Positions 7,501-39,827 of a stretch of DNA of 64,000 nt are shown in pieces; the first letter of the stretch is position 1; each line of letters opens with the position of its first letter. Under the pieces are notes generated by a model that saw only the letters and a list, made by a program, of their open reading frames with translations, made no database searches and was not told where the DNA came from. Source of the DNA: Dictyostelium discoideum (lineage: Eukaryota); the NCBI GenBank assembly GCA_000004695.1, contig CM000155.2, forward strand, positions 3,538,380 to 3,602,379, read 5' to 3'. The translations under genes and the position numbers were made by a program.

Positions 7501-10500
7501 TTCTTTCTTTATCGCATTACATTTCTCTTTTGAATAGGTTGTTGATAATGGTACCCATTCATCAATGAATTGACGATGTAGTTGTGCATTGGCTCTCATT
7601 TGATCCATTGAAATTCCATAACGTTTTAAGATTTCAGCAGCTTCATTTGCATCATCCTCTAATAGGGATAAACTTTCAGATGAGAAATTTAAAAGATCTG
7701 AACTATCGACACCTGGTACACTTGTGATAGTAATATCACCAACGGTTGAATGTGGAGGAAATCTTTCAATTAATTTATTTACAATCTCTTGATGTTCACG
7801 ATTATTAGTTTCATCAAAATCCAATACACCATTACCAATGAATTGTTGTGCTAAATATTTTCTAATTGCTATATCTTGATGATGTTTTGAATTTGGTTTG
7901 AAACCATTCCATGTTAATCTTGCAACCAATTGACCCTCTTCATCCAATGACATTGAAACCTCCTCCATATGACCTGATAAAATTAAGAAAGCTCTCATTA
8001 CCCAAGCAAAACGTACATCTGGTGGTGGTTTTTCATTATCATCACCTTTATAAACTCCAAACATATGTATACGTAATTCAGTTTCTTTTGGTAAATTCTT
8101 TACTAATGGATTTAATTTAATTGCTTCTTTTGCACTCTCTGGTATTTCAATTGTCATTGGAAAAACTACTGATCTATTAACTTGTTCACCACCTAATGTT
8201 ACTTTTTTCTCTGCCCAATTACTCCAAACTGTACTATGACATGATGAAGTTAATGTTGATAAATTTGATGACGATGATAATGATGATGGAATATTATTAA
8301 TATTAATACCACTACTACCACCACCACCTCTTCTCCAACCATTAATTAATGGTGAAGGTATACCAATTGTACCAAGAATTTGACACATTTTTGAAACATG
8401 TAAACAAACAATACCACCAGTAACTTGAATATATTGTTTCATATATTTTGAAAAATTATTTGAATGAGTTGAACCACAAAATTTATTTAATAAACTATTT
8501 GAATCATTTGGATCAGGATTTGTAAATTGATTTGCAGCCCAATTTTCCCATTCACCAATTGAAGGGAATTGCCATTGTTTATTTGAGATTTCAATCATCA
8601 TTTGAATGATTTGTTGATGAAGATGTGATGGTATACCAATCATTGAAAGTTTTCTTGAATCTTGATGAGTTACAACAAACAATTTGAATAACAAATCTTT
8701 TGGAATACAATAGCCAGCTGTTGGTCCAGCGGAAAAGGATTCGTTTTCTTTACCCAATGCAATTGAAAGACCACCACGTTGATTGAATTGATATGATAAA
8801 TCTTCTATATCCCCAACTGATAAACGTTCGACAAACAATGCTTGTACATTTCTAACTGATCTAATCAATGCAGTATTTTGATTTTCACTAACTTTTAAAT
8901 TCTCTGCAGTAGTGATAGTACGAATTATTGGATTATAATTAATTAAAGAATAGAAACGATAAGCATGTTTTGCACAAAGTGGATCAGTTACACCAAGAAA
9001 TTGAGGCCAAGTTTCAACTGATTTTCTTTCATCTTTACCAAGGTTAACTCTTGATGGACCATAAATGAAATGATAACGTTTTCTCATACCAGTTGGTCTA
9101 ATTTCACCACCATTTTCACCGTCACTACCTCCACCACCACCACCACCAATTACAGCACCACAACTAAAGGCAAACAATGGATTATTCAATTGATTTAATA
9201 AACCATTCTCAGATATTACTGATCTTCTTGCTGTTGTTAATGATAATACTGAATGATTTCTATAATATTTCTCTAAACGTTTTAATATAAATAACTCTGG
9301 TTTCTTTTTATCAATAATCTCTAATGCTCTATATCTTGCTTCCCATTGAATAAAATATTTTAATTCATTCCTATATGGTTGTTTTGATTTAATAATAATT
9401 GAAATTTCTTCTTTTGATAAATTTATAATATTACCACTACTACCACTACTACCACTACCAACACCATTTGGTGATAGAAAATCTTTTTCATTTTTATTTT
9501 GTTGATAAATTGTTTCAATACCTAAATCTTGAAATTCTTTATAATATTTTGAATTATTTAAAATTTCTAAAACAGTTTTTGGTTCAGATTTAAGTCTTTC
9601 TTCTAAATTAAAGTTTATAGAATTTTCAGATGATGATGATAATGAATCATCAATTTTTTCTAATTCAAATAAAATTAATAATAATGAAACTTGTTTTTGA
9701 ATTATTAAATGATCAGAAACAATTGAAGAGATTGCACGTTGATGAGATATTTTCAAATGATTTTGACGTTGTTCAACTATTGGTTGATAATTAAATTCAT
9801 TGATAACTTTACAACCAACTAAATAGAGATCATTTTGATATTGATTTAATTTCTTTTCAACCAATTGTGGTAGACCATTATAATGTTCAATGATATTATT
9901 TAAACACATTTCTTCCTCTAGTACAGCTTGAATAAAACTTTCAACCAAACCTGGTGCCTCGGTAGTTAATAAATGAAAACCTGGTAAATTTCTTTGCTTC
10001 TTTAATGAATAATATTGCAATTGTGATAATTTGATTGGATTGTTATCTTTTAATGATGATAAATTGAATTTCTTTGATTTTTCAATTATTTCCAATTCTT
10101 TTGATTGAATTAATTGTTTTAATGATTCAATACGTGTTATGAATTTAGATTGTTTCCAATTTTCAAAGATGTTTGATTCAACTTGTTCATAAAGATTGTT
10201 CTCTTGATATTCTTGTTCTAATTGGCATGCCAATTTAATGATATCATCTTTTTGATTGATTAATAGCTTTCTGTAGATTTGTTCAAATTCAAAGATTCCC
10301 AAATTGTCTTGATAGAGTTTAAATGATTGTTCCAATAGAGTTGTTGAATGTTTAACTAATAACTCCCTTGCCAATGATAAATGTTCAGTTAACATTGTGA
10401 TTTTAATATTCTTTGACCAAGGATCAGCCAAAGATCTTATAGTTTGTTCAAGACCTTCTTGATCGACTTCAAAAACCGTTTCACTTTTACCATCGTCAGT

Positions 10501-26170: not shown

Positions 26171-26249
26171 CTAAATAAAATAAATAAAATAAAATACAAT
26201 TAATTAATAATTTGATTTTTTTTTTTTTTTTTTTTTACACTAAACTTAC

Positions 26250-29200
26250 TTTTTGAAGTTTTAAATCTTTGTAATAATTTATCAATTAAAGTTTCAGATT
26301 GTTTATCTTTTTCAATAAAAGAGAATAAATATTTTAAAATATTTTTAATTGAATCTTTTGAAATATTATTTAAATTACTTGTAACGGTTGAAGCAGGAGT
26401 AATTTTACCAATGATATCAGGTAAAGAATTATAAAGGTTATTACCTTTTGAAGCTAAAGTTGAAAAGAATAACTTTGCAATATTTGAAATACGAATATCA
26501 GAATCTTCCAAACAAATTGCCATTTCGCTAATTTGACCTTTAACTTTAATCATATCATTTAAAATTAAATGAGTGAGAACCATTAAAGAATTTTTTCTAG
26601 CATCTGCATTTGGATCTCTTAATCTTGAATAAATTTTTGAAGTCCATGGTTCGACTAAATTTGGAAATCTAAAAGCTAAATCACCTAATCCAATGATAAT
26701 ATTTGATCTAATCACTTCAATTGATGACTTTTCCAAGAGAGTGAAAAGTAATTGAAGATTTGATTCACAAAAGTTTGAATCAACACACATAAATTTTGAT
26801 AAAGTTAAAACTGCACTTGTTTGTAATAATTGATTTGGGAATTGTTCATTTGAAAAGATTTCATTATAATTATAACAAATTGAAACAACCAATTGAGAAT
26901 ATTTTCCAATTAAATTATTTTCAGATAAAATATCAGATTCTGCTTGAATTTGAATTGCTTCAGATTCTGCTTCTGCTTCTGCTTGATCAGTACCTAATTC
27001 TTTTTCAATATCTGTTTTCTTTTTATTATTGTTATTATTATTTTTTGATTGTTTTGATTGTTCATATTGAATTCTTTTAATTTCAGATTGAATTTCTTCA
27101 ACATAAACCAATTGTTTAATTGCAATATGACCTAAAATAAATATTAATTTTGATAAACAATATTGATTAGTTTCACCATTTTCATCTAAAACTTGATCTG
27201 ATAATTTCTTTATAATTTCACTTGAAATTAAATCTGGTTGTTCAGCTAAAATATAAATTGTATTAATTACTTGTTCTGCAAACATAAACCATTTTGAATT
27301 TTTAATATCATTATCAATATTATCATTTGTTGTTGTTGTTGTTGTTGTTGTTGAACAAATATGATAAATTAAACGTTCAAATAATGATTGATTATTTTTA
27401 AAACGTGGTAAAATTTGATCAGTTTCTTTTAAACCTTTTGATCTTAATTTTTGAAGAGTTATACAAGTATAACGTGGTAAAAATTCATCATCTTGTTCTT
27501 CTAAACCAATTGAAACCAACAAATTAACTTTATCTTTAACAACGGAAGAATTATTATTTGAAATCATTGATAAGATAATTAAAGCTCCACGACTATCTTG
27601 TTTATTGAAATTTACAACCTTTCCAGAGAAAATATCCCAGAGTGCTTTTATTATATCTTGATCTATTAAATCTTTTTTAGTGAATTCAATCATTAATTCC
27701 TCTAAAGATGTAATTTCACCCAATGTTGCAGTTGTAGTTAAATCGATTAAATTCTTTGCAATATAATAACTTGATTTTAATGTTGATTTAACTTTTTCTC
27801 TTGTATCTTTAATTAATAGTTCATGAAATGATCTAATTGTACTCTCTTTAATTGATTGTTCTTTATTCCAAATTAATGCCAACATTTTAGTGATTGCTTC
27901 TTTTGATTTATCAATTTGATATTTATGTGCAACTTGAATGAAATGAACAGATTCTAAAATATCAGAAGGATTAACACTACCCATTAATTGACACATTGTA
28001 TCAATTGTACTGTTTATAATTTTTATAAATTTACAAGAACTATCTAAATATTTATTTAAATGCTCTAAATATAATGGTAATCTATGTGGTGAAAATTCTT
28101 TAATTCCTGAAAATGGTACTAACATTGATATTAAATCAAAAAATTGTTCTTTATTTAATTTAATATCTTCAAAAATTTGTTTTTCTGTAATTTCTTCTTC
28201 TTCTTCTTCTTCTTCTCCATCTTCCTCTTCTTTCTCTTTTTTCTCTTCTTCTTCTTTTTGTTGTTGTTGTTGTTGTTCAAATTCCATATTATCATCTGGT
28301 ACTTGTTGTGAATTTAATAAATCATCTTCATTATTATTATTATTATTATTTTTTAATTTTTTTGATTTTTTTAATAATTCTTTCTTTTTCTTTAAATTAT
28401 AAAATGATAATTTAATAAAAGAAGCTAATTTTTCTTTTTTATCTTTAAATAACAAAGTTGGTAAATGAGGTGAATATGGATTTGATTCTAAAATATCAGA
28501 TAATAAAAGAATTGCTCTTTTTCTAACCAAAGAATTTTTATCAGAAACACGTTCAATTGCAATCTTTGTTAATTGAATATAACTTTCTTTTGGTACCCAA
28601 TTATTATTTACCAATAATGATAAAGTTTTTAAAACACTACTTCTACAATAACCATTAATATCTCTACAACGTTCAAATAAAATATGTAATAATTCTGATT
28701 GATCTGATTCATTCTTTTTTTGATTTTCAACTTCTTCCTCTTCTTCTTGTTCAGATTTTTTATCTTTATTATTGCTTTCAACTTTATTTAAAGCTTTACC
28801 AATTAAAAAACCAATTGATTCAGTTACAGCATTACGCATTAAATATGATTCAGAATCTAAATGAGCCAATAATAAACTAACGAATGGTAAAACTATTTTT
28901 GGTAAACGATCAGTTAATTCTGATAAAAATTTTGCTAAATTTTTAAAACCACTTGTATCACGTTGTTCTTTTTGTTTACCAATTTCTCTAATAATATCTG
29001 AAATTAAAAATGTAGTTTGATTCTTTTGTTGTTGATTTGTTGATTGTGAATAAATATTTTGTTGTTGTTGTTGTTGCTGATGCTTTTGTTGTTGTTGTTG
29101 ATAATCATAAATAAATTCATAAAGGTCAGCACAATGTGAAGGCAAAGATTCATGATTATGTAAAAGATGAATAATTTTACTTGTGAAATTAAAGGAATGA

Positions 29201-29561
29201 TTATAACGTAAAATTAAAATTGATAAAACTTCAAAAATTAATTTCTTTACACCTTTACTACGTAAGTTTGCTGGTTGTTCAATCATTGCATAAATAATTT
29301 TTGAGAGTAAATTTATAAATTCTTCTTCTGGATAATCTAATCTCCAAAGTGTTGATAAATTTAATTCTAAACAATTTATAATTGATGTTAATATTGCTTC
29401 TTTTTGTTCTTCTTGTTCCCAAGTATCTAAAACTGAAGAATTTTTTTTTTTTGTTGATTTCTTTTTACTAGTTATTGATGCTGTTTCATTATTATTTTCT
29501 GATGTTGATTTTGATGATTCCTTTGTTGTTGATGATGAGTGTTGATATGATATATAATGTT
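26250..29561 (-). CDS. condensin complex subunit 1 (CND1/NCAPD2), main exon
   Basis: …IGLGDLAFRFPNLVEPWTSKIYSRLRDPNADARKNSLMVLTHLILNDMIKVKGQISEMAICLEDSDIRISNIAKLFFSTLASKGNNLYNSLPDIIGKI closely matches the conserved Cnd1 C-terminal domain of human NCAPD2. The frame stays open upstream of the track's M (29286) to an acceptor tttttttag| at 29562-29563 (…WRLDYPEEEFINLLSKIIYAMIEQPANL…). Confidence 0.8.
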
Positions 29562-30105: not shown

Positions 30106-30468
30106 TTACATATACACTTTATTGTGTTGGATTGAAATAATTGAAAAAAAAAAAAAAACTTTTTTTTCAAAAAAAAAAAAAAAAAAAAAAAACCAATGAC
30201 AATGAAAAAAAAAAAAAATTTTTAATTAATTTTTGTAAATGGCGCGATTTGGTGTTTTGTTTTTTTTTTTAATTTGAAAAAATTTGCCGCCAAAATTTTA
30301 AATGAATAATTTAATATATTTTTAAAAATGGGGGTGTTTTGTTTTTGTTTTAAAATAAAAATAAAAGTTAAAAATAAAAATTAGAAAAAATCTTTTTTTT
30401 TTTATTTTTTATTTTTTTATTTTTATTTTTTTTTTTGGTATGGGTTGGTTTTTTGATTAAAAAAAAAA

Positions 30469-31398
30469 ATGAAATATCTAAAAATATTAATAATTGTTAC
30501 AATTTTTTTTTTATTAATATCACAATTTGATCAACTCTATTGGGATATTGAATTGAATTCATTTAAAGATTTGGTGCAACTGATTCCGCTGTTCCTTGTT
30601 CAATGTTAATAGATTTATCAATTTCTTTACAATCTGAAATTAAAAAATCAAAAAGTAAATCTATTAATATATTTTTTAGTGTTTTATCTTTATCCATCCA
30701 TATTTTTTTTTTAATTATCCAATTTGGATATCCATCTTTTATAAAATTTTATTCAATTTTTTTTTAAAGCTATTGTTGGTGCGAAATGAAAGATATTTTT
30801 GTTTTTTTTTGTGTGAAGGTATTTAACAAATTTTTTAAAAAAAAAAAAAAAACAAAATAAAATAAAATAAAAAATAAAAAAAAAAATAATATAAAAAAAA
30901 AAATAAAAATTTGTGATAATAAAGATATTTTAAGGTTGGCCAATTATAGATTATTTTTAATTTTTCTATGCAATAAACCGAAATTGAGCTATTATTTAAA
31001 CTGAAAAATTTTGAGAAAATGAAAATATAAGGGGTCCCAAAAAAAAAATAAAAAAAAGAGGCGAGAAACTCACCAATAATAATAATAATAATTTTAGAAA
31101 AATTCTGATTATATTTTTTGATGGTGAAGAAGCATTTAAAGAATGGAGTGATACAGATTCATTATATGGTTCCAGACATTTAGCAAATTTATTATTGGAT
31201 AAAAAAGTAATTACCAAAGATAATGAGGATTTACCAATTAGTAGTAGCTTTTATAATACAGTTGAGGCTTTTATATCATTGGATTTATTGAGTACTCCAA
31301 ATCCAAGATTTTATATGTTTAATAAAAAAACTGAATCATTATTTAAAAAATTATCCAATATTGAAGATAAATTATCTTTAAAAAGATTGTAAGTGTTT

Positions 31399-31432
<34 letters not shown>

Positions 31433-31695
31433 CTAATTTTAATTTTCATATTTAAAAACAAAAAAAAAATAGTATAAGTCCAAAAGCAAATAAATACTTT
31501 CAAAATCATTTTATTGGTTCAGATATTCAATATGATCATATACCATTTTTAAACTATGTACCAACATTTATTATTCCTTACCCATTTCCAAATGTTTGGC
31601 ACACTGAAAAAGATGATGAACCTTATTTAGATAAAAATACAATCGAAGATTTATTAAAAATATTTGAAATATTTTTTGGTTCTTATTTGATATAA
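30469..31695 (+). pseudogene. glutaminyl-peptide cyclotransferase pseudogene (upstream tandem copy)
   Basis: Exons 2 and 3 (31098-31388, 31473-31695) are about 95-97% identical to the intact copy. Exon 1 (30469-30690) has lost two internal blocks relative to 33019-33583, including the HYDSK active-site region. It reads MKYLKILIIVTIFFLLISQFDQLYWDIELNSFKDLVQLIPLFLVQC-stop. The promoter-proximal element ttgaaaaaatttgccgccaaaattttaaa is conserved at 30270. Confidence 0.75.
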
Positions 31696-31807
31696 AAAAA
31701 ATAAAAAATAAAAAACAAAGGAATAAAAAATAGTAAATACATGTGTTTAAATATGTTTGAATGTTTTTTTTTTTTTTATTATTTTTTTTTTTATAATTAA
31801 CTAATTT

Positions 31808-32383
31808 TCAAACAGCACAAACATTATTAATATCAATTTTAACTTCATCTAACATCTTATCTATAACATTTAAATGTTTTGGTAAAGAGCCTTTATATTG
31901 TTGTACTATAACCACAATATCATTAATAGATGCCTCATCTTCACCATCATGTATTATAGTATTACGTTCATCTTTTAATTTTCTTATTTCCTCGAGATCT
32001 ATTTGGTGGTTTGTTTTGGCAAACTCAACAAACTTTGAGTGTTTATTGAACTCGTGTTTGAATCTGTTCCATTTGAACAATTTTGCGGTCTGTTCTGTTT
32101 TGAATTTCGATTTGAGTTGGGGTAATAATATATTTCCAAGATAATAATTTGCCATTAATGAAGAACGTGCATATGCAATTAATTGTTTTTCTTCTTCTGT
32201 TTTAGGTTTATTTTTATCATATAAATTATTTCTATAAAAAGGATTTCCTACTGTAAAAGCATTGATTTTGTCATGAAGTTTTTTCATCTCTTTGTCTCTT
32301 TCTTCTCCTTTAAACAATAAATCAGATACTGATGATTTTAACCCATCTATTTGTGTTTTTAAATTGGTATTTTCGGTTGTCAT
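31808..32383 (-). CDS. 191-aa protein with an ERNTIIH (Rx4H) motif, function unknown
   Basis: ATG at 32383. There is a patch of codons with C/G in the third position, a pattern typical of highly expressed genes in this organism. Its 3' end abuts the Y element shared with the 34465 gene; the X element lies upstream. Confidence 0.55.
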   Translation of the reverse strand: MTTENTNLKTQIDGLKSSVSDLLFKGEERDKEMKKLHDKINAFTVGNPFYRNNLYDKNKPKTEEEKQLIAYARSSLMANYYLGNILLPQLKSKFKTEQTAKLFKWNRFKHEFNKHSKFVEFAKTNHQIDLEEIRKLKDERNTIIHDGEDEASINDIVVIVQQYKGSLPKHLNVIDKMLDEVKIDINNVCAV

Positions 32384-33018
32384 TTTGTGTATATAAAATT
32401 AGTGTGTGAAAAAAAAAAAATAAAAAAAAAAAATAAAAAAAAATAATAAGAAAATCTAAAAAAAGTTACTTGTTTTTTTCTCAAAACTAATAAGAATTTA
32501 TTTATTTTTTAACCTATTTTTGTAATAATTTTTCATACAAAAAATAAACTATAATTTTTTTTTTTTTACTTTTAGATAAATCTCACTGCCAATTAGGAAC
32601 GTTCCAAATTCGAAAATGGGTTAGTTAATTTTAATGTTCATAAAAGGAAATTATAAAAATAAACTAAATTTAAAAATAATAAAATTTTTTTAAAATTAAA
32701 CAACCAATTTTACACCCTGTTTTGTTATTTATTTTGAACTAAATTTTTTTTTTTTTTTTAAGTTGAAAAAATTTGCCGCCAAAATTTTAAAGAATAATTA
32801 AATATATTTTTAAAGATGGGGTGTTATGGTGTTTTTTTTTTTTGTTTTAAAATAAAAGTTAAATAAACAATTAAAAAAAATCTTTTTTTACTTTCTTTTT
32901 TTTTTTTTATTTTTTTTTTATTTTTATTTTTTTTAATTTTTATTTTTTTTTTTTTTTTTATTTTTTAGTTTTTTTTTTTGGTTGGATTAGTTTTTGATTA
33001 AAAAAAAAAAAAAAAAAA

Positions 33019-33583
33019 ATGAAATATCTAAAAATATTAATAATTGTTACAATTTTTTTTTTTTTATTAATAAATGTGATTAATTGTATTGATAGAAAAG
33101 AGATAGTACAAAAAGAAGTGAAAATTAAATTTAAAAATTTAAAATCCACATTAATAAAGAAATATAGTGAATCAAATATGGAAAAAATTCAAAAACATTT
33201 AAAACATATATTGGTTGAAAGAGTTGCCGATACTCCAAACCATAAAAAAGTTAGAGAATATATAATATCACAATTTGATCAACTCTATTGGGATATTGAA
33301 TTGGATTCATTTAAAGATAATACTCCATTTGGTGAGAAAACTTTTACAAATATAATTGTAACATCAAAATTTGTTAATGATGATGATGAAGATGATATTG
33401 ACACAAAAGAAAGCAATGGTAACATATCAAGTGAACCACCAAAAACATTAGTACTATCAGCTCACTATGATTCTAAATATTTTAAAGAATTTAAATTCTT
33501 TGGTGCAACTGATTCCGCTGTTCCTTGTTCAATGTTAATAGATTTAGCAATTTCTTTACAATCTGAAATTAAAAAATCAAAGA
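33019..33583 (+). CDS. glutaminyl-peptide cyclotransferase (glutaminyl cyclase), exon 1
   Basis: A signal peptide (MKYLKILIIVTIFFFLLINVINC) is followed by …[36 protein letters not shown], matching human QPCT LVLACHYDSKYF…[21 protein letters not shown]. The donor is aag a|gtaaat at 33584. The exon length is 565 = 3n+1. Confidence 0.8.
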
Positions 33584-33649
33584 GTAAATATATTAATATA
33601 TATTTTTTTAAAAAAAAAATAAAATAATAATTAAAAAAAAACTTTTTAC

Positions 33650-33725
<76 letters not shown>

Positions 33726-33730
33726 TTTAG

Positions 33731-34022
33731 AAAAATTAATGATTATATTTTTTGATGGTGAAGAAGCATTTAAAGAATGGAGTGACACAGATTCATTATA
33801 TGGTTCCAGACATTTAGCAAATTTATTATTGGATAAAAAAGTAATTACCAAAGATAATGAAGATTTACCAATTAGTAGTAGTTTTTATAATACAGTTGAG
33901 GCTTTTATATTATTGGATTTATTGGGTACTCCAAATCCAAGATTTTATATGTTTAATAAAAAAACTGAATCATTATTTAAAAAATTATCTGATATTGAAG
34001 ATAAATTATCTTTAAAAAGATT
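33731..34022 (+). CDS. glutaminyl cyclase exon 2
   Basis: The acceptor is aattttag| at 33729-33730. [26 protein letters not shown] matches human [26 protein letters not shown]. The donor is tt|gtaagtg at 34023. Intron 1 contains an (AAT)23 microsatellite at 33655-33723. Confidence 0.8.
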
Positions 34023-34029
34023 GTAAGTG

Positions 34030-34097
<68 letters not shown>

Positions 34098-34129
34098 TAT
34101 AATAATAATATTTAAAACAAAAAAAATAG

Positions 34130-34355
34130 TATAAGTCCAAAAGCAAATAAATACTTTCAAAATCATTTTATTGGTTCAGATATTCAAGATGATCATATAC
34201 CATTTTTAAACTATGTACCAACATTACATATTATTCCTTACCCATTTCCAAATGTTTGGCACACTGAAAAAGATGATGAATCTTGTTTAGATAAAAATAC
34301 AATTGAAGATTTATCAAAAATATTTAAAATATTTGTTGGTTCTTATTTAATATAA
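34130..34355 (+). CDS. glutaminyl cyclase exon 3
   Basis: The acceptor is aaaatag| at 34128-34129. …[36 protein letters not shown] matches human [37 protein letters not shown]. The stop codon is at 34353-34355. Confidence 0.8.
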
Positions 34356-34408
34356 AATAAATAAAAAATTAAAAATTAAAAAAAGTAAATACATGTATTT
34401 AAATGTTG

Positions 34409-34445
<37 letters not shown>

Positions 34446-34464
34446 TTTTAATTTTATTTTATAA

Positions 34465-34818
34465 TTAACTAATTTTTAAACCATTTTCAATTTTTGAATC
34501 TGGTGATAATAAAATTACATCTCCTTCTTCTTTACCTAATGCACCTAATACTAAACATTCAGACATAAATTTTCTACCAATTTGTTTCTTTGGAAAATTT
34601 ACAACGGCAACAATTTGACGATTTACTAAATCTTCTTTATTATATCTCTTTGTAATTTGTGCCGAGGATTTACGAATTCCAATGGTTTCACCAAAATCAA
34701 TGGTTAATTGGTAGGCAGGTTTTCTTGCTTCTGGGAAATCATCAACTTGGATTATTGTTCCAACTCTCATATCCACTCTTTCAAATTCCTCCCATTTTAA
34801 ATCTCTTTTATCTTCCAT
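34465..34818 (-). CDS. stand-alone tRNA-binding domain protein (Myf/EMAP-II/CsaA/Trbp111-like OB fold)
   Basis: 117 aa with an ATG start. VDMRVGTIIQVDDFPEARKPAYQLTIDFGE…NRQIVAVVNFPKKQIGRKFMSECLVLGA follows the tRNA_bind pattern (compare [29 protein letters not shown]…). Confidence 0.65.
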   Translation of the reverse strand: MEDKRDLKWEEFERVDMRVGTIIQVDDFPEARKPAYQLTIDFGETIGIRKSSAQITKRYNKEDLVNRQIVAVVNFPKKQIGRKFMSECLVLGALGKEEGDVILLSPDSKIENGLKIS

Positions 34819-35320
34819 TGTTTTTTTTTTTTTTTTTTAAGTCTTTTTAAATTAAATGCCAAATTGGATTTTTAATTTTTAATTTTTTGTTTCGAAACTA
34901 AACAAAAAAAAAAATAAAAATAAAAAAATAAAAATAAAAAAAAAAAATAAAAAAAAAAAATAAAAATAAAAAAAAAAAAAAAATAAATTAATATTCTGGA
35001 ATAAGAAAATCTAAAAAAAGATACTTGTTTTTTTCTCAAATTAACGAATTTTTTAAAAAATTTATAATATAAAACCTACTATTTTTCTAATAATTTTTAC
35101 CTTTCATACCAAAAAAAAACAAACAATTTTAATTTATTTATGAATATGATTAATGAGATCTCATTTTATTTAATTCTAAGGTAGAAAGTTTAAAGCATTA
35201 TAATAAAAGTAAAGTGTTTAGTGTCGCTATGTATTACGTTACGTGTTTTTATTAAATTTGTTTTTAATGTTTAAGATTTTTGTCATCCTTCAAAAAATTA
35301 GCTTTAACTTAATTCGTTTT

Positions 35321-35726: not shown

Positions 35727-35800
35727 GCCTTAGTAGCTCAGTTGGTATGAGCGTGAGACTGAAGATCTTAAGGTCGCTGGTTCGATCCCGGCCTGAGGCA
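35727..35800 (+). tRNA. tRNA-Phe (anticodon GAA)
   Basis: GCCTTAG|TA|GCTC|AGTTGGTAT|GAGC|G|TGAGA|CTGAAGA|TCTTA|AGGTC|GCTGG|TTCGATC|CCGGC|CTGAGGC|A folds as a canonical cloverleaf with 7/4/5/5-bp stems, U33, G37, a GTTCGATCC B box and an A box TAGCTCAGTTGG. It is very similar to yeast tRNA-Phe. No CCA is encoded. Confidence 0.9.
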
Positions 35801-36006: not shown

Positions 36007-39000
36007 AATGTCAGAGGTTGGGGCACTGACACCTCCTTCAAAAACAAAACAGACTTTATCAAATCCCAATCCCCCCCAAACTCATTGGCACTAACCATAG
36101 TCAATGAACTCAACGCCGACGCAACACAAGCACACCAGCTATTCCCTGGCTCCATCATTAGCGCAACCAAAAGAGGCAACGGAATAGGAATACTAAACCA
36201 CAACAACCAAAACATAAAACTCTCACCAATATTCATAATAGAAGGTAGACTAATAATATCAGACATTCTAATAAAAGATACCACAACGAGAATCTTGGCC
36301 ATATACGCCCCGGCCCAACCTGATAAAAGAAAAACACTAGCTTCAACACTAAACAAACACTTCAACAACCAATACCACAACCTAACGTCTAACCCTAAAA
36401 AAAACATNGACATCATAGCAGGCGACTTCAACTGTTTAGACTTCAATGACAATCACACATCAAATGATGACCAAGGCAACTTGACAACACAATCCCCAGA
36501 TGAGATGGCCACAGTAATCGAAGCCATCAGAATTTCAAATAACCTAATGGATATGGACCAACTAAATAAAAGACCCACCTTCTCAAGAACGATACACAAC
36601 ACAAACAATAACCTCACAAGAATCTTGGAAAGGAGACTAGACAGAATATACCTTAACAATAGCNTAATCAACTACAGCCAATTATACTTAAGGAACCTAA
36701 TCCCCCCAAAAATTAACGACATACCTCTATCAGATCACAACTTCCTATCAACCACTTTCACTCTACCCAACATACAGATGAACAAGCGCAGATGGAGATT
36801 AAAAAAATCCTCAATCCTCTCAAGCATAATGCTTAAGAAAATAGACTTCCTACTTAACGATTATTCAAGGGAGCTGTCATCCAACCATAACTCTATTTCC
36901 TTCTCTCAACTCAACAGCTTACTNAACAAAATAAAACAACTATACACNGAATTTCAAAAACAAAACGACTACAACAATAAGGCAAACATCAAAAATCTAA
37001 TCTCCCTACTAGAGACAGAATTTAAAGACCAAGCCTTCGCAACCCTTTCAGCAATAAATGAATCTAAAAAAAGAGAAGAACAACTTAAACAAGAATTGAA
37101 CAACTATTGCGAAGAAACCTCACTCAAGTACATCTCCGCGAGAATCAAGAAAAGACACAATGATTTCACCATCAACGCAGTAAAAGATGCACAAGGTAGA
37201 ACAATTAACAAACAGGAATTGATCGAAGAAGAATACGTAAAATATTACTCAAATCTTTATGACTACAAAGAAGATGACCCACTATCTCATTACGAAATGT
37301 TGGAAAATTGGACAGTGACCAGGGACTCAACATGGGACAACCTTGAAAATGAATTCACCTCACAAGAAATCCTAGAAGTAATAAAACAACTGAACCCACA
37401 CAAATCTCCAGGTCCAGATGGAATTCCAAACTTATTCTACATAACACACAAAGAAAAACTAGCTCCAATACTGGCCTCAGCATTCAACGACACTCTAAGA
37501 AATCCTCATCTAATTAGCAAAAATTACAAAGAAGGCCTCATTATCACGATACCTAAAAAGGGAGACCCCGAACTAATCAAAAACAGAAGACCAATTACAC
37601 TGGCTAACTGTATATATAAAATCCACTCAAAGCTAATAAACAATAGAATAATCCCAATACTAACGAAAGTGATCAACCACAATCAAAAAGGTTTCGTACC
37701 AGGCAGATTCATTCTAGATAATATCATATCAATGAACGAATTAATCAACTATTGTAATGATAAAAGAATTAACGGAATAATTACACTATATGATTTCGAA
37801 AAAGCTTTTGACTCGATCTCACACGGTTCAATACTTAGATCACTACAACACATCAACATTCCAACCAATATAATCAACCTGATAATGAATCTACTCACCA
37901 AATCTGAAGCAAGAATTGAAATTAATGGTAGAACTACTATACCCTTTGAGATCAAAAGAGGAGTTAAACAAGGAGATCCACTATCACCCACCCTGTTCGT
38001 CCTTGTAATAGAGGCTTTAGCTAGAAAAATTTTACAAGATGACCGAATTACTGGCCTTCCTCTAAACAACAGCAACCACAGAGAGAAATTCCAAAGCTTT
38101 GCAGACGACTCGGCTTCAATGGTCCCAGACTCTCAACAACTTGAATTAGTACTACAACACTTCAATTCATTTTGCAAAGCCACTTCCTCAAAACTAAACA
38201 TCGACAAATCTTCATCAATTCTTATAGGCAACCCAGACAATACCAACCAAAGAATTCCAATATCTACAAATCCAGAAAGATACTTGGGATACTTCTTCAC
38301 AGGCAAAGGGATAACAAGAAAAATGCCAGAAATATTAAACACAATAAGATCATCCTTAGTACTATGGAAAACCACTGACTCAACAATCAAAACCAAAACC
38401 AACATCCTCAAAGCATTCGCACTCTCTAAATTAACCTACTATTCATATGTAGAGAACTTTAAGGAAGAGGAATTAAACCAAATCAATAAATTAGTCGAAT
38501 GGTTTTTATCGGCACCAAACAACAAAAATGCTAGTGGATTTCAAGTTATTAATTTAATGAGAACCAAAAGAGCAAGATACCCACTAAAAGTAGGGGGCTG
38601 GAACATTTGGAATATAGAATTGAGACAACTGGCGCAGAAACTTTGGATCATAAACCAGTTCATCCTAGCACTAGAAACCAAACAAACAAACTCATCTCAT
38701 CACAAAAGCTGGGAATATCAGATCCAAAAAAACAAATTCACATCCAGATACCTAAAAGAAAACTTAGACGAATGGAACAAAATAAGAATAAAAAAAGCAA
38801 TCTTCAACAATAATCTCACATCCATAAAAAACGAAAATGGACAACCACTTTCACTGGCAGAATGGTATACCACAATTCAAGACCAAAATCCAACCATCCC
38901 TAAAACGGAATTCCAATCATCTCTAAACTTAAGAGGCTACAGCTATAATCAACTCTTCAACAACATACTGAAGATAAAAGACCCTAAAACAAGAGACACA

Positions 39001-39827
39001 ATGTTTAGATTCCATGCCAGATGCCTTCCAATAAACTACCTTCACAACAAACAATGCCCACTCTGCAAAGAAGATATGAGCAAAGACCCATACGGTCACC
39101 TGTTCTTCTCATGCAAGAAAACAAAACAATTCATAAAAATAAATAAACTCAAAAATTTCATCTATATTACCACAGGCAAAGGTAAAAACTGGCATCATAC
39201 AAGAATTAGGCAAAATAACAATTTCATTAATAGAATAACTCCAAAATTATCACCGACAGCCAAAAAAGATCAAGAAGTGAATGCAGATTACGCCAACCAC
39301 AGATTCCACAAAGAATACTTTGAATGGAACTATAAAGCAATAGACTATGATCTAACCAGATCATTCGCATATAGAAACCTAATGGCCCTTATCCTCCACA
39401 ACATTTGGATTTGGATTTGCAATCAAATATACAGTGAAGATCCTTTAACAAATGAATCACTATCATACAGCTCCCTTCTAAAGAAATGGCACAAATTGGC
39501 CACTCTAGAATACATCAAAAAAGCAAAAGATCTGAAAAACTTATCAGCAAAAGACCATAATAATTTCAAAGATCCTAAGATCCTTCTCACCTCAACGATC
39601 AAGCTAAGAAAAACAACAGCTAATTACTATTGTATTCCAGAATCATCTCTCCCAAATATTATATCTTTTGATCAATTCATATGATTAAAATAACCCTTCA
39701 GCTTAAATGATAAGCCTATAAATAAATATTAAATAAAAACTCGTATTAACACAGATGGACATATATCAATCTTGTTAATCCAATATTAAAAAAAAAAAAA
39801 TATTATACTGTTGATTTATACACCAGA
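36007..39827 (+). mobile_element. TRE3-like tRNA-gene-targeted non-LTR retrotransposon, 5'-truncated (no ORF1), same orientation as and downstream of tRNA-Phe
   Basis: Base composition jumps to GC-rich at 36007. It contains a single 1199-codon APE+RT ORF, a 3' A13 tract at 39781-39793, and is bounded by agaattagtactaccaaatattatactgt repeats. Ambiguous n bases at 36418, 36664, 36924 and 36958 indicate consensus assembly of a repeated element. The subfamily was assigned by position and orientation only. Confidence 0.6.
36085..39684 (+). CDS. retroelement ORF2: apurinic-like endonuclease + reverse transcriptase + C-terminal Cys-rich domain
   Basis: The N-terminal block …IAGDFNCLDFNDNH… is EEP/APE-like. 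The RT motifs are …PITLANCIYKIHSKLINNR…, …YDFEKAFDSISHGS…, and FADDSA (the YxDD box). The C-terminus CPLCKEDMSKDPYGHLFFSCKKT is a zinc-knuckle-like segment. Confidence 0.8.
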   Translation: MALTIVNELNADATQAHQLFPGSIISATKRGNGIGILNHNNQNIKLSPIFIIEGRLIISDILIKDTTTRILAIYAPAQPDKRKTLASTLNKHFNNQYHNLTSNPKKNXDIIAGDFNCLDFNDNHTSNDDQGNLTTQSPDEMATVIEAIRISNNLMDMDQLNKRPTFSRTIHNTNNNLTRILERRLDRIYLNNSXINYSQLYLRNLIPPKINDIPLSDHNFLSTTFTLPNIQMNKRRWRLKKSSILSSIMLKKIDFLLNDYSRELSSNHNSISFSQLNSLXNKIKQLYXEFQKQNDYNNKANIKNLISLLETEFKDQAFATLSAINESKKREEQLKQELNNYCEETSLKYISARIKKRHNDFTINAVKDAQGRTINKQELIEEEYVKYYSNLYDYKEDDPLSHYEMLENWTVTRDSTWDNLENEFTSQEILEVIKQLNPHKSPGPDGIPNLFYITHKEKLAPILASAFNDTLRNPHLISKNYKEGLIITIPKKGDPELIKNRRPITLANCIYKIHSKLINNRIIPILTKVINHNQKGFVPGRFILDNIISMNELINYCNDKRINGIITLYDFEKAFDSISHGSILRSLQHINIPTNIINLIMNLLTKSEARIEINGRTTIPFEIKRGVKQGDPLSPTLFVLVIEALARKILQDDRITGLPLNNSNHREKFQSFADDSASMVPDSQQLELVLQHFNSFCKATSSKLNIDKSSSILIGNPDNTNQRIPISTNPERYLGYFFTGKGITRKMPEILNTIRSSLVLWKTTDSTIKTKTNILKAFALSKLTYYSYVENFKEEELNQINKLVEWFLSAPNNKNASGFQVINLMRTKRARYPLKVGGWNIWNIELRQLAQKLWIINQFILALETKQTNSSHHKSWEYQIQKNKFTSRYLKENLDEWNKIRIKKAIFNNNLTSIKNENGQPLSLAEWYTTIQDQNPTIPKTEFQSSLNLRGYSYNQLFNNILKIKDPKTRDTMFRFHARCLPINYLHNKQCPLCKEDMSKDPYGHLFFSCKKTKQFIKINKLKNFIYITTGKGKNWHHTRIRQNNNFINRITPKLSPTAKKDQEVNADYANHRFHKEYFEWNYKAIDYDLTRSFAYRNLMALILHNIWIWICNQIYSEDPLTNESLSYSSLLKKWHKLATLEYIKKAKDLKNLSAKDHNNFKDPKILLTSTIKLRKTTANYYCIPESSLPNIISFDQFI

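Follow-up and report, generated by a model that had tools for sequence, protein, structure and literature searches.

How do two unrelated genes come to lie in the same position of two copies of one duplicated unit? This question is raised by a locus of Dictyostelium discoideum AX4, contained in the 64-kb stretch of DNA that was analysed here (the window; AX4 coordinates below are positions in it). At this locus, a glutaminyl-cyclase (QC) gene is present twice on the plus strand (copy A and copy B), and each copy is followed by a different gene on the minus strand: a 191-amino-acid (aa) gene, DDB_G0293954, after copy A, and a gene for a tRNA-binding-domain protein after copy B. An earlier note, based on the letters of the sequence, described a tandem duplication with one dead QC copy, in which the same flanks (Y, at the 3′ end of each QC gene, and X, upstream of each minus-strand gene) bracket the two minus-strand genes, and suggested gene replacement, conversion or insertion between these flanks after the duplication. 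The account that we favour, with moderate confidence, is that the whole unit was duplicated in tandem and that the body of the spare tRNA-binding copy then gave way to a fragment that carried the 191-aa gene.

Four D. discoideum-group assemblies were compared: AX4, two others labelled D. discoideum (L002 and L003) and one labelled 'cf. discoideum' (L004). Outgroup loci from D. firmibasis (L006), D. citrinum (L007) and D. dimigraforme (L008) were retrieved via their QC orthologues, and recurrence of X and Y was tested across the window plus nine related loci. The window DNA has approximately 20% G+C, with poly-A/T tracts between genes and short introns of the gtaagt...ag type. A literature search found no paper mentioning DDB_G0293954 or treating this locus.

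A tandem duplication with a dead and a live cyclase

Copy A (30255–31813) and copy B (32744–34481) are collinear QC duplicates in the same orientation (head-to-tail), as seen by blastn and by global alignment. The aligned blocks are 30255–30436 with 32744–32925 (86%), 30512–30570 with 33259–33318 (97%), 30561–30677 with 33489–33607 (94%), 31075–31797 with 33708–34443 (90% with gaps; 97% ungapped for exon 2) and 31789–31813 with 34457–34481 (24/25). Collinearity extends from the promoter through Y and is found once more at X, so that the copies share a block of several features, as in a tandem segmental duplication. The outgroup loci L006, L007 and L008 are single-copy at the orthologous position, which likewise identifies the AX4 state as a duplication.

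QC copy A (30469–31695, plus strand) is a pseudogene, retaining homology to the functional gene and carrying disabling lesions. The two exon-1 deletions and the premature stop that had been reported for it are all present: the deletions remove approximately 195 and 181 bp (~33071–33262 and ~33319–33498 in copy B), and the reading frame, MKYLK...LVQC*, stops at codon 47 (TAA, 30607–30609). Furthermore, a 1-bp deletion shifts the frame at the start of exon 2, and exon 3 has a 3-bp deletion and a QDDH>QYDH change. L002 and L003 carry both exon-1 deletions plus another deletion of 725 bp (window 30624–31348). The latter takes out the extra sequence of copy-A intron 1 (30678–31074), approximately 300 bp without a counterpart in copy B or in the intact A copy of L004. 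Another annotation predicts a 200-aa protein from QC copy A (P0013, ACTFIT_003051; 30603–31695), which begins just past the Asp position of the zinc ligand, contains QYDH in place of QDDH and lacks a signal peptide. This prediction is most likely an annotation artefact, the product of a pseudogene.

QC copy B is intact and encodes 360 aa in exons 33019–33583, 33731–34022 and 34130–34355 (plus strand; 98% identical to P0007). It has a full-length Peptidase_M28 domain (PF04389, 7e-31) and aligns with annotated animal glutaminyl-peptide cyclotransferases at approximately 40–45% identity over 86–100% of the length. Judged by this similarity, copy B is an intact glutaminyl-peptide cyclotransferase homologue of the Peptidase_M28 type. 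Its intron 1 contains a long (AAT)n tract (33652–33725), which is much shorter at the matching place in copy A.

The duplication includes the QC promoter. The promoter and leader of copy A (P_A, 30255–30468, plus strand) belong to a divergent intergenic region of approximately 360 bp shared with the gene for the condensin subunit Cnd1, which is the left neighbour of the locus (26200–29286, minus strand). P_A contains a 29-mer with the GC island GCCGCCAAAATTT (30274–30302), and this 29-mer recurs exactly at 32763–32791, in the promoter and leader of copy B (P_B, 32744–33018, plus strand). It occurs nowhere else in the 64 kb, shuffled sequences being expected to contain none, and it is the promoter-like element that the earlier note had seen in both copies. 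The island, (T)GCCGCCAAAATTT(Y)AAAGA, is located approximately 190–230 bp upstream of the QC start codon. It has been preserved in D. citrinum, D. firmibasis and L004, where the surrounding DNA is AT-rich and otherwise unalignable, and it probably represents a genuine cis element of the divergent QC/Cnd1 promoter.

The ancestral gene of the slot and its relics

In L006, L007 and L008, the locus consists of a single unit: Cnd1 (minus strand), one QC gene (plus strand) and the tRNA-binding gene (minus strand), with 80–125 bp between the latter two and no 191-aa gene. In D. purpureum, which has both Cnd1 and QC, another gene comes next. The 191-aa gene is thus missing from the slot in outgroups but exists elsewhere, as D. 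firmibasis has two members of the 191 family, both at other loci. Because the single-unit outgroups have the tRNA-binding gene in the slot and the 191 family at other positions, the tRNA-binding gene is its ancestral occupant. The earlier note had left it to the orthologous locus to tell which gene came first, and three outgroup species now give this answer.

In AX4, the live tRNA-binding gene (34465–34818, minus strand) encodes 117 aa with a tRNA_bind domain (PF01588, 1.7e-15) and is under strong purifying selection (ratio of nonsynonymous to synonymous substitution rates, dN/dS, at most 0.1). The possibility that the two minus-strand proteins are divergent homologues was considered and rejected: BLASTP between them gives E = 13, and one has a tRNA_bind domain where the other has no Pfam hit. 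The two genes are therefore non-homologous, as originally stated.

Relics of a tRNA-binding copy are found on both sides of the 191-aa gene. On one side lies the 3′ flank of QC copy A (Y_A, 31696–31813, plus strand), the counterpart of the 3′ flank of copy B (Y_B, 34356–34481, plus strand), into which the live tRNA-binding gene extends with its 3′ end. The stop codons of both minus-strand genes fall inside Y, as the earlier note had pointed out (TGA 31808–31810 for the 191-aa gene, TAA 34465–34467 for the tRNA-binding gene). In its final 17 bp (TTAACTAATTTTTAAAC), Y encodes the ending ...GLKIS* of the tRNA-binding protein; every outgroup has conserved this stretch, and it is present at Y_A in AX4, L002 and L003. 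Because the end of Y is tRNA-binding coding sequence, the same string beside the 191-aa gene (31797–31813, TTAACTAATTTTCAAAC), which corresponds to the last codons and stop, is a relic of a tRNA-binding copy, and the TGA of the 191-aa gene falls within it. The A copy of L004 retains a longer relic (TTATCACTAGATTCAAAAATTGAAAATGCTTTAAAA, codons ~99–114 of the tRNA-binding gene) next to its 191 homologue, and the approximately 45 bp that separate this relic from the stop of the 191 homologue are similar to the sequence natively found 3′ of the 191-family genes in D. firmibasis. In AX4, L002 and L003, the 191 stop is joined directly to the relic at a 10–11-bp microhomology, GTTTAAAA(A)TTA, which points to a later deletion of approximately 75 bp.

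On the other side lies element X. X_B, upstream of the live tRNA-binding gene (35000–35164, plus strand), is conserved in L002, L003, L004 and D. citrinum, with D. dimigraforme retaining part of it, and AX4 has a second copy, X_A (32445–32585, plus strand), upstream of the 191-aa gene. The earlier note had given X as approximately 100 bp at 32440–32545 and 34994–35100; the element is present at both places, and its extent was set too short, as the homology totals approximately 141 bp and reaches 32585 and 35164. Its core is identical at 40 of 41 positions between the copies, and the core 40-mer occurs only at 32445–32484 and 35000–35039 in the 64 kb, as both pieces of Y occur solely at the two copies; shuffles are expected to give none of these. 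Beyond the core, the match is weaker yet collinear (local score 53 versus a null of 25 ± 6.6, p ~0.001), and X_A against X_B scores 118, where a null of real AT-rich segments of the window reaches a maximum of 50. Because the core is also found upstream of the live tRNA-binding gene in relatives (39/40 in L004, 36/40 in D. citrinum and its 3′ half in D. dimigraforme), X is the ancestral upstream element of that gene, on its promoter side. The tRNA-binding gene has thus left its 3′ relic in all four assemblies and its upstream relic, X_A, in AX4 only.

The protein of the incoming 191-aa gene (31808–32383, minus strand; 100% identical to DDB_G0293954 of AX4) has a coiled coil in its N-terminal part and a helical C-terminal region that is conserved. 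A Pfam search with the protein gave no hit, and its AlphaFold model (mean predicted local distance difference test score, pLDDT, of 48) is too poor for use. A HEPN-like R-x4-H motif was dropped as a candidate, being without a Pfam hit and not conserved across the family. A search of 1.8 billion representatives with a profile of the family returned 9 hits, 6 of them at E <= 1e-10; among the three weakest are non-dictyostelid proteins (one from the green alga Tetraselmis striata and an unnamed ENA sequence), whose match covers the coiled-coil part only. By this search, the family is restricted to dictyostelids, namely the D. discoideum group, D. firmibasis, D. purpureum, Polysphondylium violaceum and Tieghemostelium lacteum. 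Homologues of the gene are found at 10001–10840 in L002, 10001–10915 in L003 and 10001–10478 in L004, the last of these frameshifted. In L002 and L003, the N-terminus is 88–113 residues longer, in the coiled-coil part, and dN/dS between AX4 and either of them is 1.2–1.4. DDB_G0293954 is a young arrival at the locus with a dN/dS of about 1 or more. Of its leader (32384–32444, minus strand), approximately 25 bp are common to L002, L003 and L004, followed by an A-rich tract, where the sequence again becomes homologous to that upstream of the tRNA-binding gene. At a D. firmibasis locus (L005, 7433–10612), a 191 paralogue is located 150 bp downstream of a gene with a hAT-dimerisation domain (PF05699, 2.8e-11), on the same strand.

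L002, L003 and L004 share the overall arrangement of AX4, and all four assemblies have the Y_A/191 junction, either as such or in a variant form. In the non-coding 3′ flank, states specific to A or to B are shared between strains, and a tree built from exon 3 and the flank groups the pseudogene A copies. The shared junction, the flank states and this clustering indicate that the duplication and the arrival of the 191-aa gene predate the split of the four assemblies, and that the copies have since evolved mostly independently, the A copies being orthologous to each other, as are the B copies. In L004, copy A is intact (exon 1 fully open, exons 2 and 3 gap-free) and copy B is an exon-3 remnant only. 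The lineages have lost opposite copies: AX4, L002 and L003 lost cyclase A, and 'cf. discoideum' lost cyclase B. For the tRNA-binding gene, synonymous divergence (dS) is 0.14–0.15 among the D. discoideum-group assemblies and 0.19 to D. citrinum, values calculated from only approximately 71 synonymous sites, and this places the event within a narrow interval after the D. citrinum split. As dS between AX4 and L002, L003 or L004 is nearly as large as that to D. citrinum, it also suggests deep cryptic lineages; assemblies labelled D. discoideum differ in structure at this locus.

Reconstructing the order of events

The favoured history would start from an ancestor of the D. discoideum complex with a single unit of condensin gene (minus strand), QC (plus strand) and tRNA-binding gene (minus strand). 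After the D. citrinum split, a tandem duplication of approximately 2.4 kb, from the QC promoter to ~165 bp past the start of X and with breakpoints in or near A/T tracts, would have produced two QC and two tRNA-binding genes. Subsequently, a fragment consisting of the 191-aa gene and a few tens of bp of its native flanking sequence would have replaced the left-unit tRNA-binding copy in the same orientation. The replaced stretch would run from approximately codon 98 to the A-rich tract before X, leaving the 3′ end in Y_A and the upstream element X_A. In the clade of AX4, L002 and L003, the approximately 75-bp deletion between two GTTTAAAA(A)TTA microhomologies would then have fused the 191 stop to the relic codons. 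The redundancy of the QC genes would have been resolved reciprocally, copy A being killed in the AX4 clade and copy B being cut to an exon-3 stub in 'cf. discoideum'. Finally, the spacer between the 191-aa gene and copy B would have been remodelled separately in each lineage, in AX4 including a transfer of promoter sequence from A to B.

The outgroup gene order, the relics in Y and in L004, and the presence of X upstream of the gene in outgroups all support the replacement between conserved flanks that had been suggested for this locus. That the duplication would have come first and the replacement second is indicated by X_A in particular. X_A is 87.7% identical to X_B of AX4 and 91.6% to X_B of L004, and the X_B orthologues are 92–97% identical to each other. 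Since X_A is no closer to the AX4 X_B than to that of L004, and has none of the changes specific to the AX4 B copy, it appears to be old and not a recent copy. An old X_A favours duplication of the whole unit, followed by replacement.

Several observations weigh against this history. At the A position of L002, L003 and L004, nothing resembling X_A rises above background (a collinear alignment with the L004 spacer is non-significant, p = 0.22), so that, if the whole unit was duplicated, X_A must have been lost independently at least twice. None of the A copies yielded a relic of the 5′ coding part of the tRNA-binding gene, and no donor locus of the 191 fragment was found in D. discoideum. The spacer between the 191-aa gene and copy B differs in every lineage: L003 has approximately 250 bp of other sequence, and L004 has approximately 180 bp followed by the copy-B stub. 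In AX4, this spacer contains J (32586–32743, no strand assigned), a segment present in AX4 only, of which just the last ~25–60 bp loosely resemble sequence upstream of P_A. J matches neither the upstream nor the downstream flank of the unit, nor the outgroup flanks (all z < 1.5), and it therefore does not reveal the original duplication junction. P_B of AX4 is itself a chimera: its 3′ part is of B type, and its 5′ part carries sequence that is a derived state of copy A in the AX4 clade. The left edge that A/B homology now has in AX4 is therefore secondary. The survival of X_A and J in AX4 alone is the weak point of the favoured model.

The L002 spacer equals that of L003 plus an insertion of approximately 530 bp (L002 ~9340–9870), which is partly non-repetitive. 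A protein search with the RhoGEF-like open reading frame (ORF) that neighbours a D. firmibasis locus (L001) gave no match for an AX4 counterpart of that locus.

Much of what weighs against duplication of the whole unit would be explained if the arrangement arose in a single step. Here, a segment of approximately 1.75 kb, beginning at the QC promoter and reaching codon ~99 of the tRNA-binding gene, would have been duplicated with the 191 fragment as templated junction filler, in a replication-based or break-repair process. A full spare tRNA-binding copy would never have existed, and X_A would be a later patchwork repair in AX4, part of the same event that made P_B chimeric. Just one founding event is needed, the absence of X_A from L002, L003 and L004 and the missing 5′ coding relic follow directly, and the lineage-specific A-to-B transfer in AX4 does adjoin J. 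However, a patch copied after AX4 split from L002 and L003 is expected to carry the changes specific to the AX4 B copy, which X_A does not, and X_A is as diverged from the AX4 X_B as from that of L004. Its orientation and order relative to the slot gene are also correct. We therefore regard the single-step origin as unlikely, although it is the strongest competitor of duplication followed by replacement.

A different question is how the 191-aa gene would have travelled. The hAT-domain gene beside one of the D. firmibasis paralogues, together with the varying location of the family between species, could mean that a hAT-type DNA transposon delivered the gene into the spare tRNA-binding copy and then decayed. 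Yet no terminal inverted repeats surround the hAT gene and paralogue in L005, and the other D. firmibasis copy is flanked by ordinary host genes. Around the AX4 and L004 inserts, no transposase remnant, terminal inverted repeat or target-site duplication is visible, and the AX4 insert is essentially the ORF plus approximately 25 bp. Delivery by such an element is improbable.

The high similarity of the AX4 copies (97% in exon 2, with an identical promoter 29-mer), as well as the A-to-B transfer in the copy-B promoter, might instead reflect independent duplications or ongoing concerted evolution in each strain. This hardly fits with the other assemblies: the pseudogene A copies of three strains share both deletions and cluster, A-type and B-type states of the 3′ flank are shared between strains, and all strains have the same 191/relic junction. 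A per-strain origin is contradicted for the bulk of the unit and has very little probability as a general explanation, with limited conversion patches being possible.

Least credible of all is that X and Y are generic low-complexity sequence or common regulatory motifs and their sharing a coincidence, because, even in surroundings of about 20% G+C with many cross-matching poly-A/T tracts and with a search space of 64 kb and nine related loci, their uniqueness to the two copies, the X scores far above those of real AT-rich segments and the cross-species conservation of the end of Y as tRNA-binding coding sequence contradict it.

To the right of the locus are a tRNA-Phe gene (35727–35800), which is kept beside the locus in other Dictyostelium assemblies, and a non-LTR retrotransposon ORF. 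The latter (36085–39684) starts approximately 285 bp downstream of the tRNA-Phe gene, has ambiguous bases inside and encodes a reverse transcriptase of 1199 aa (RVT_1, 1e-33). Together, the pair looks like a tRNA-gene-targeted non-LTR retroelement.

Comparison with known systems

The locus resembles known cases of duplication with divergent resolution, in that it has two head-to-tail units, a disabled QC copy and the loss of different copies in different lineages. Unlike in the usual cases, the copies are only 2.5 kb apart and the map position of the gene has not moved, so that no hybrid-incompatibility effect is expected.

An unrelated gene with tens of bp of its own flanks, placed inside a former tRNA-binding copy, is also reminiscent of the capture of ectopic DNA at a break, and the later deletion at the 10–11-bp GTTTAAAA(A)TTA is like microhomology-mediated repair. 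The capture would have to be read back from its products, and the donor, the original junctions and the right-hand junction were not recovered.

A third likeness is to promoter capture or ORF replacement, as the AX4 191 ORF has the orientation of the old gene and starts 61 bp downstream of X. L002 and L003 have an intact ORF without X_A, which means that X_A is not required to keep the ORF open; in AX4, the 191-aa gene may use X_A as a promoter. More speculatively, the locus could represent a natural 'ORF swap', in which a near-flankless ORF came to be controlled by the promoter and terminator already present at a redundant copy, with the dN/dS above 1 reflecting positive selection (for example, in conflict or kin recognition) and not decay. 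We consider this doubtful. If true, the swap was the means by which a coiled-coil family that is mobile and evolves fast came to be expressed from a locus new to it.

The presence of different genes between the same flanks superficially recalls integron-type or other site-specific cassettes. Unlike in those, there are only two slots and one old, shared event, and the flanks are ordinary gene ends and promoter DNA. The locus has no recombinase gene and no repeated attachment sites, and X and Y occur only twice in the window. There is no sign of recurrent cassette exchange; the event is old and single.

In terms of known kinds, the locus is a tandem segmental duplication with pseudogenisation, reciprocal resolution and the probable replacement of a redundant gene by captured ectopic DNA. 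This is well-documented, ordinary genome turnover, with no new mechanism or kind of system. Its value lies in an unusually complete, base-level history of gene turnover in a small eukaryotic genome: duplication created redundancy, one spare gene was probably overwritten, and the other pair was resolved in opposite ways in sister lineages.

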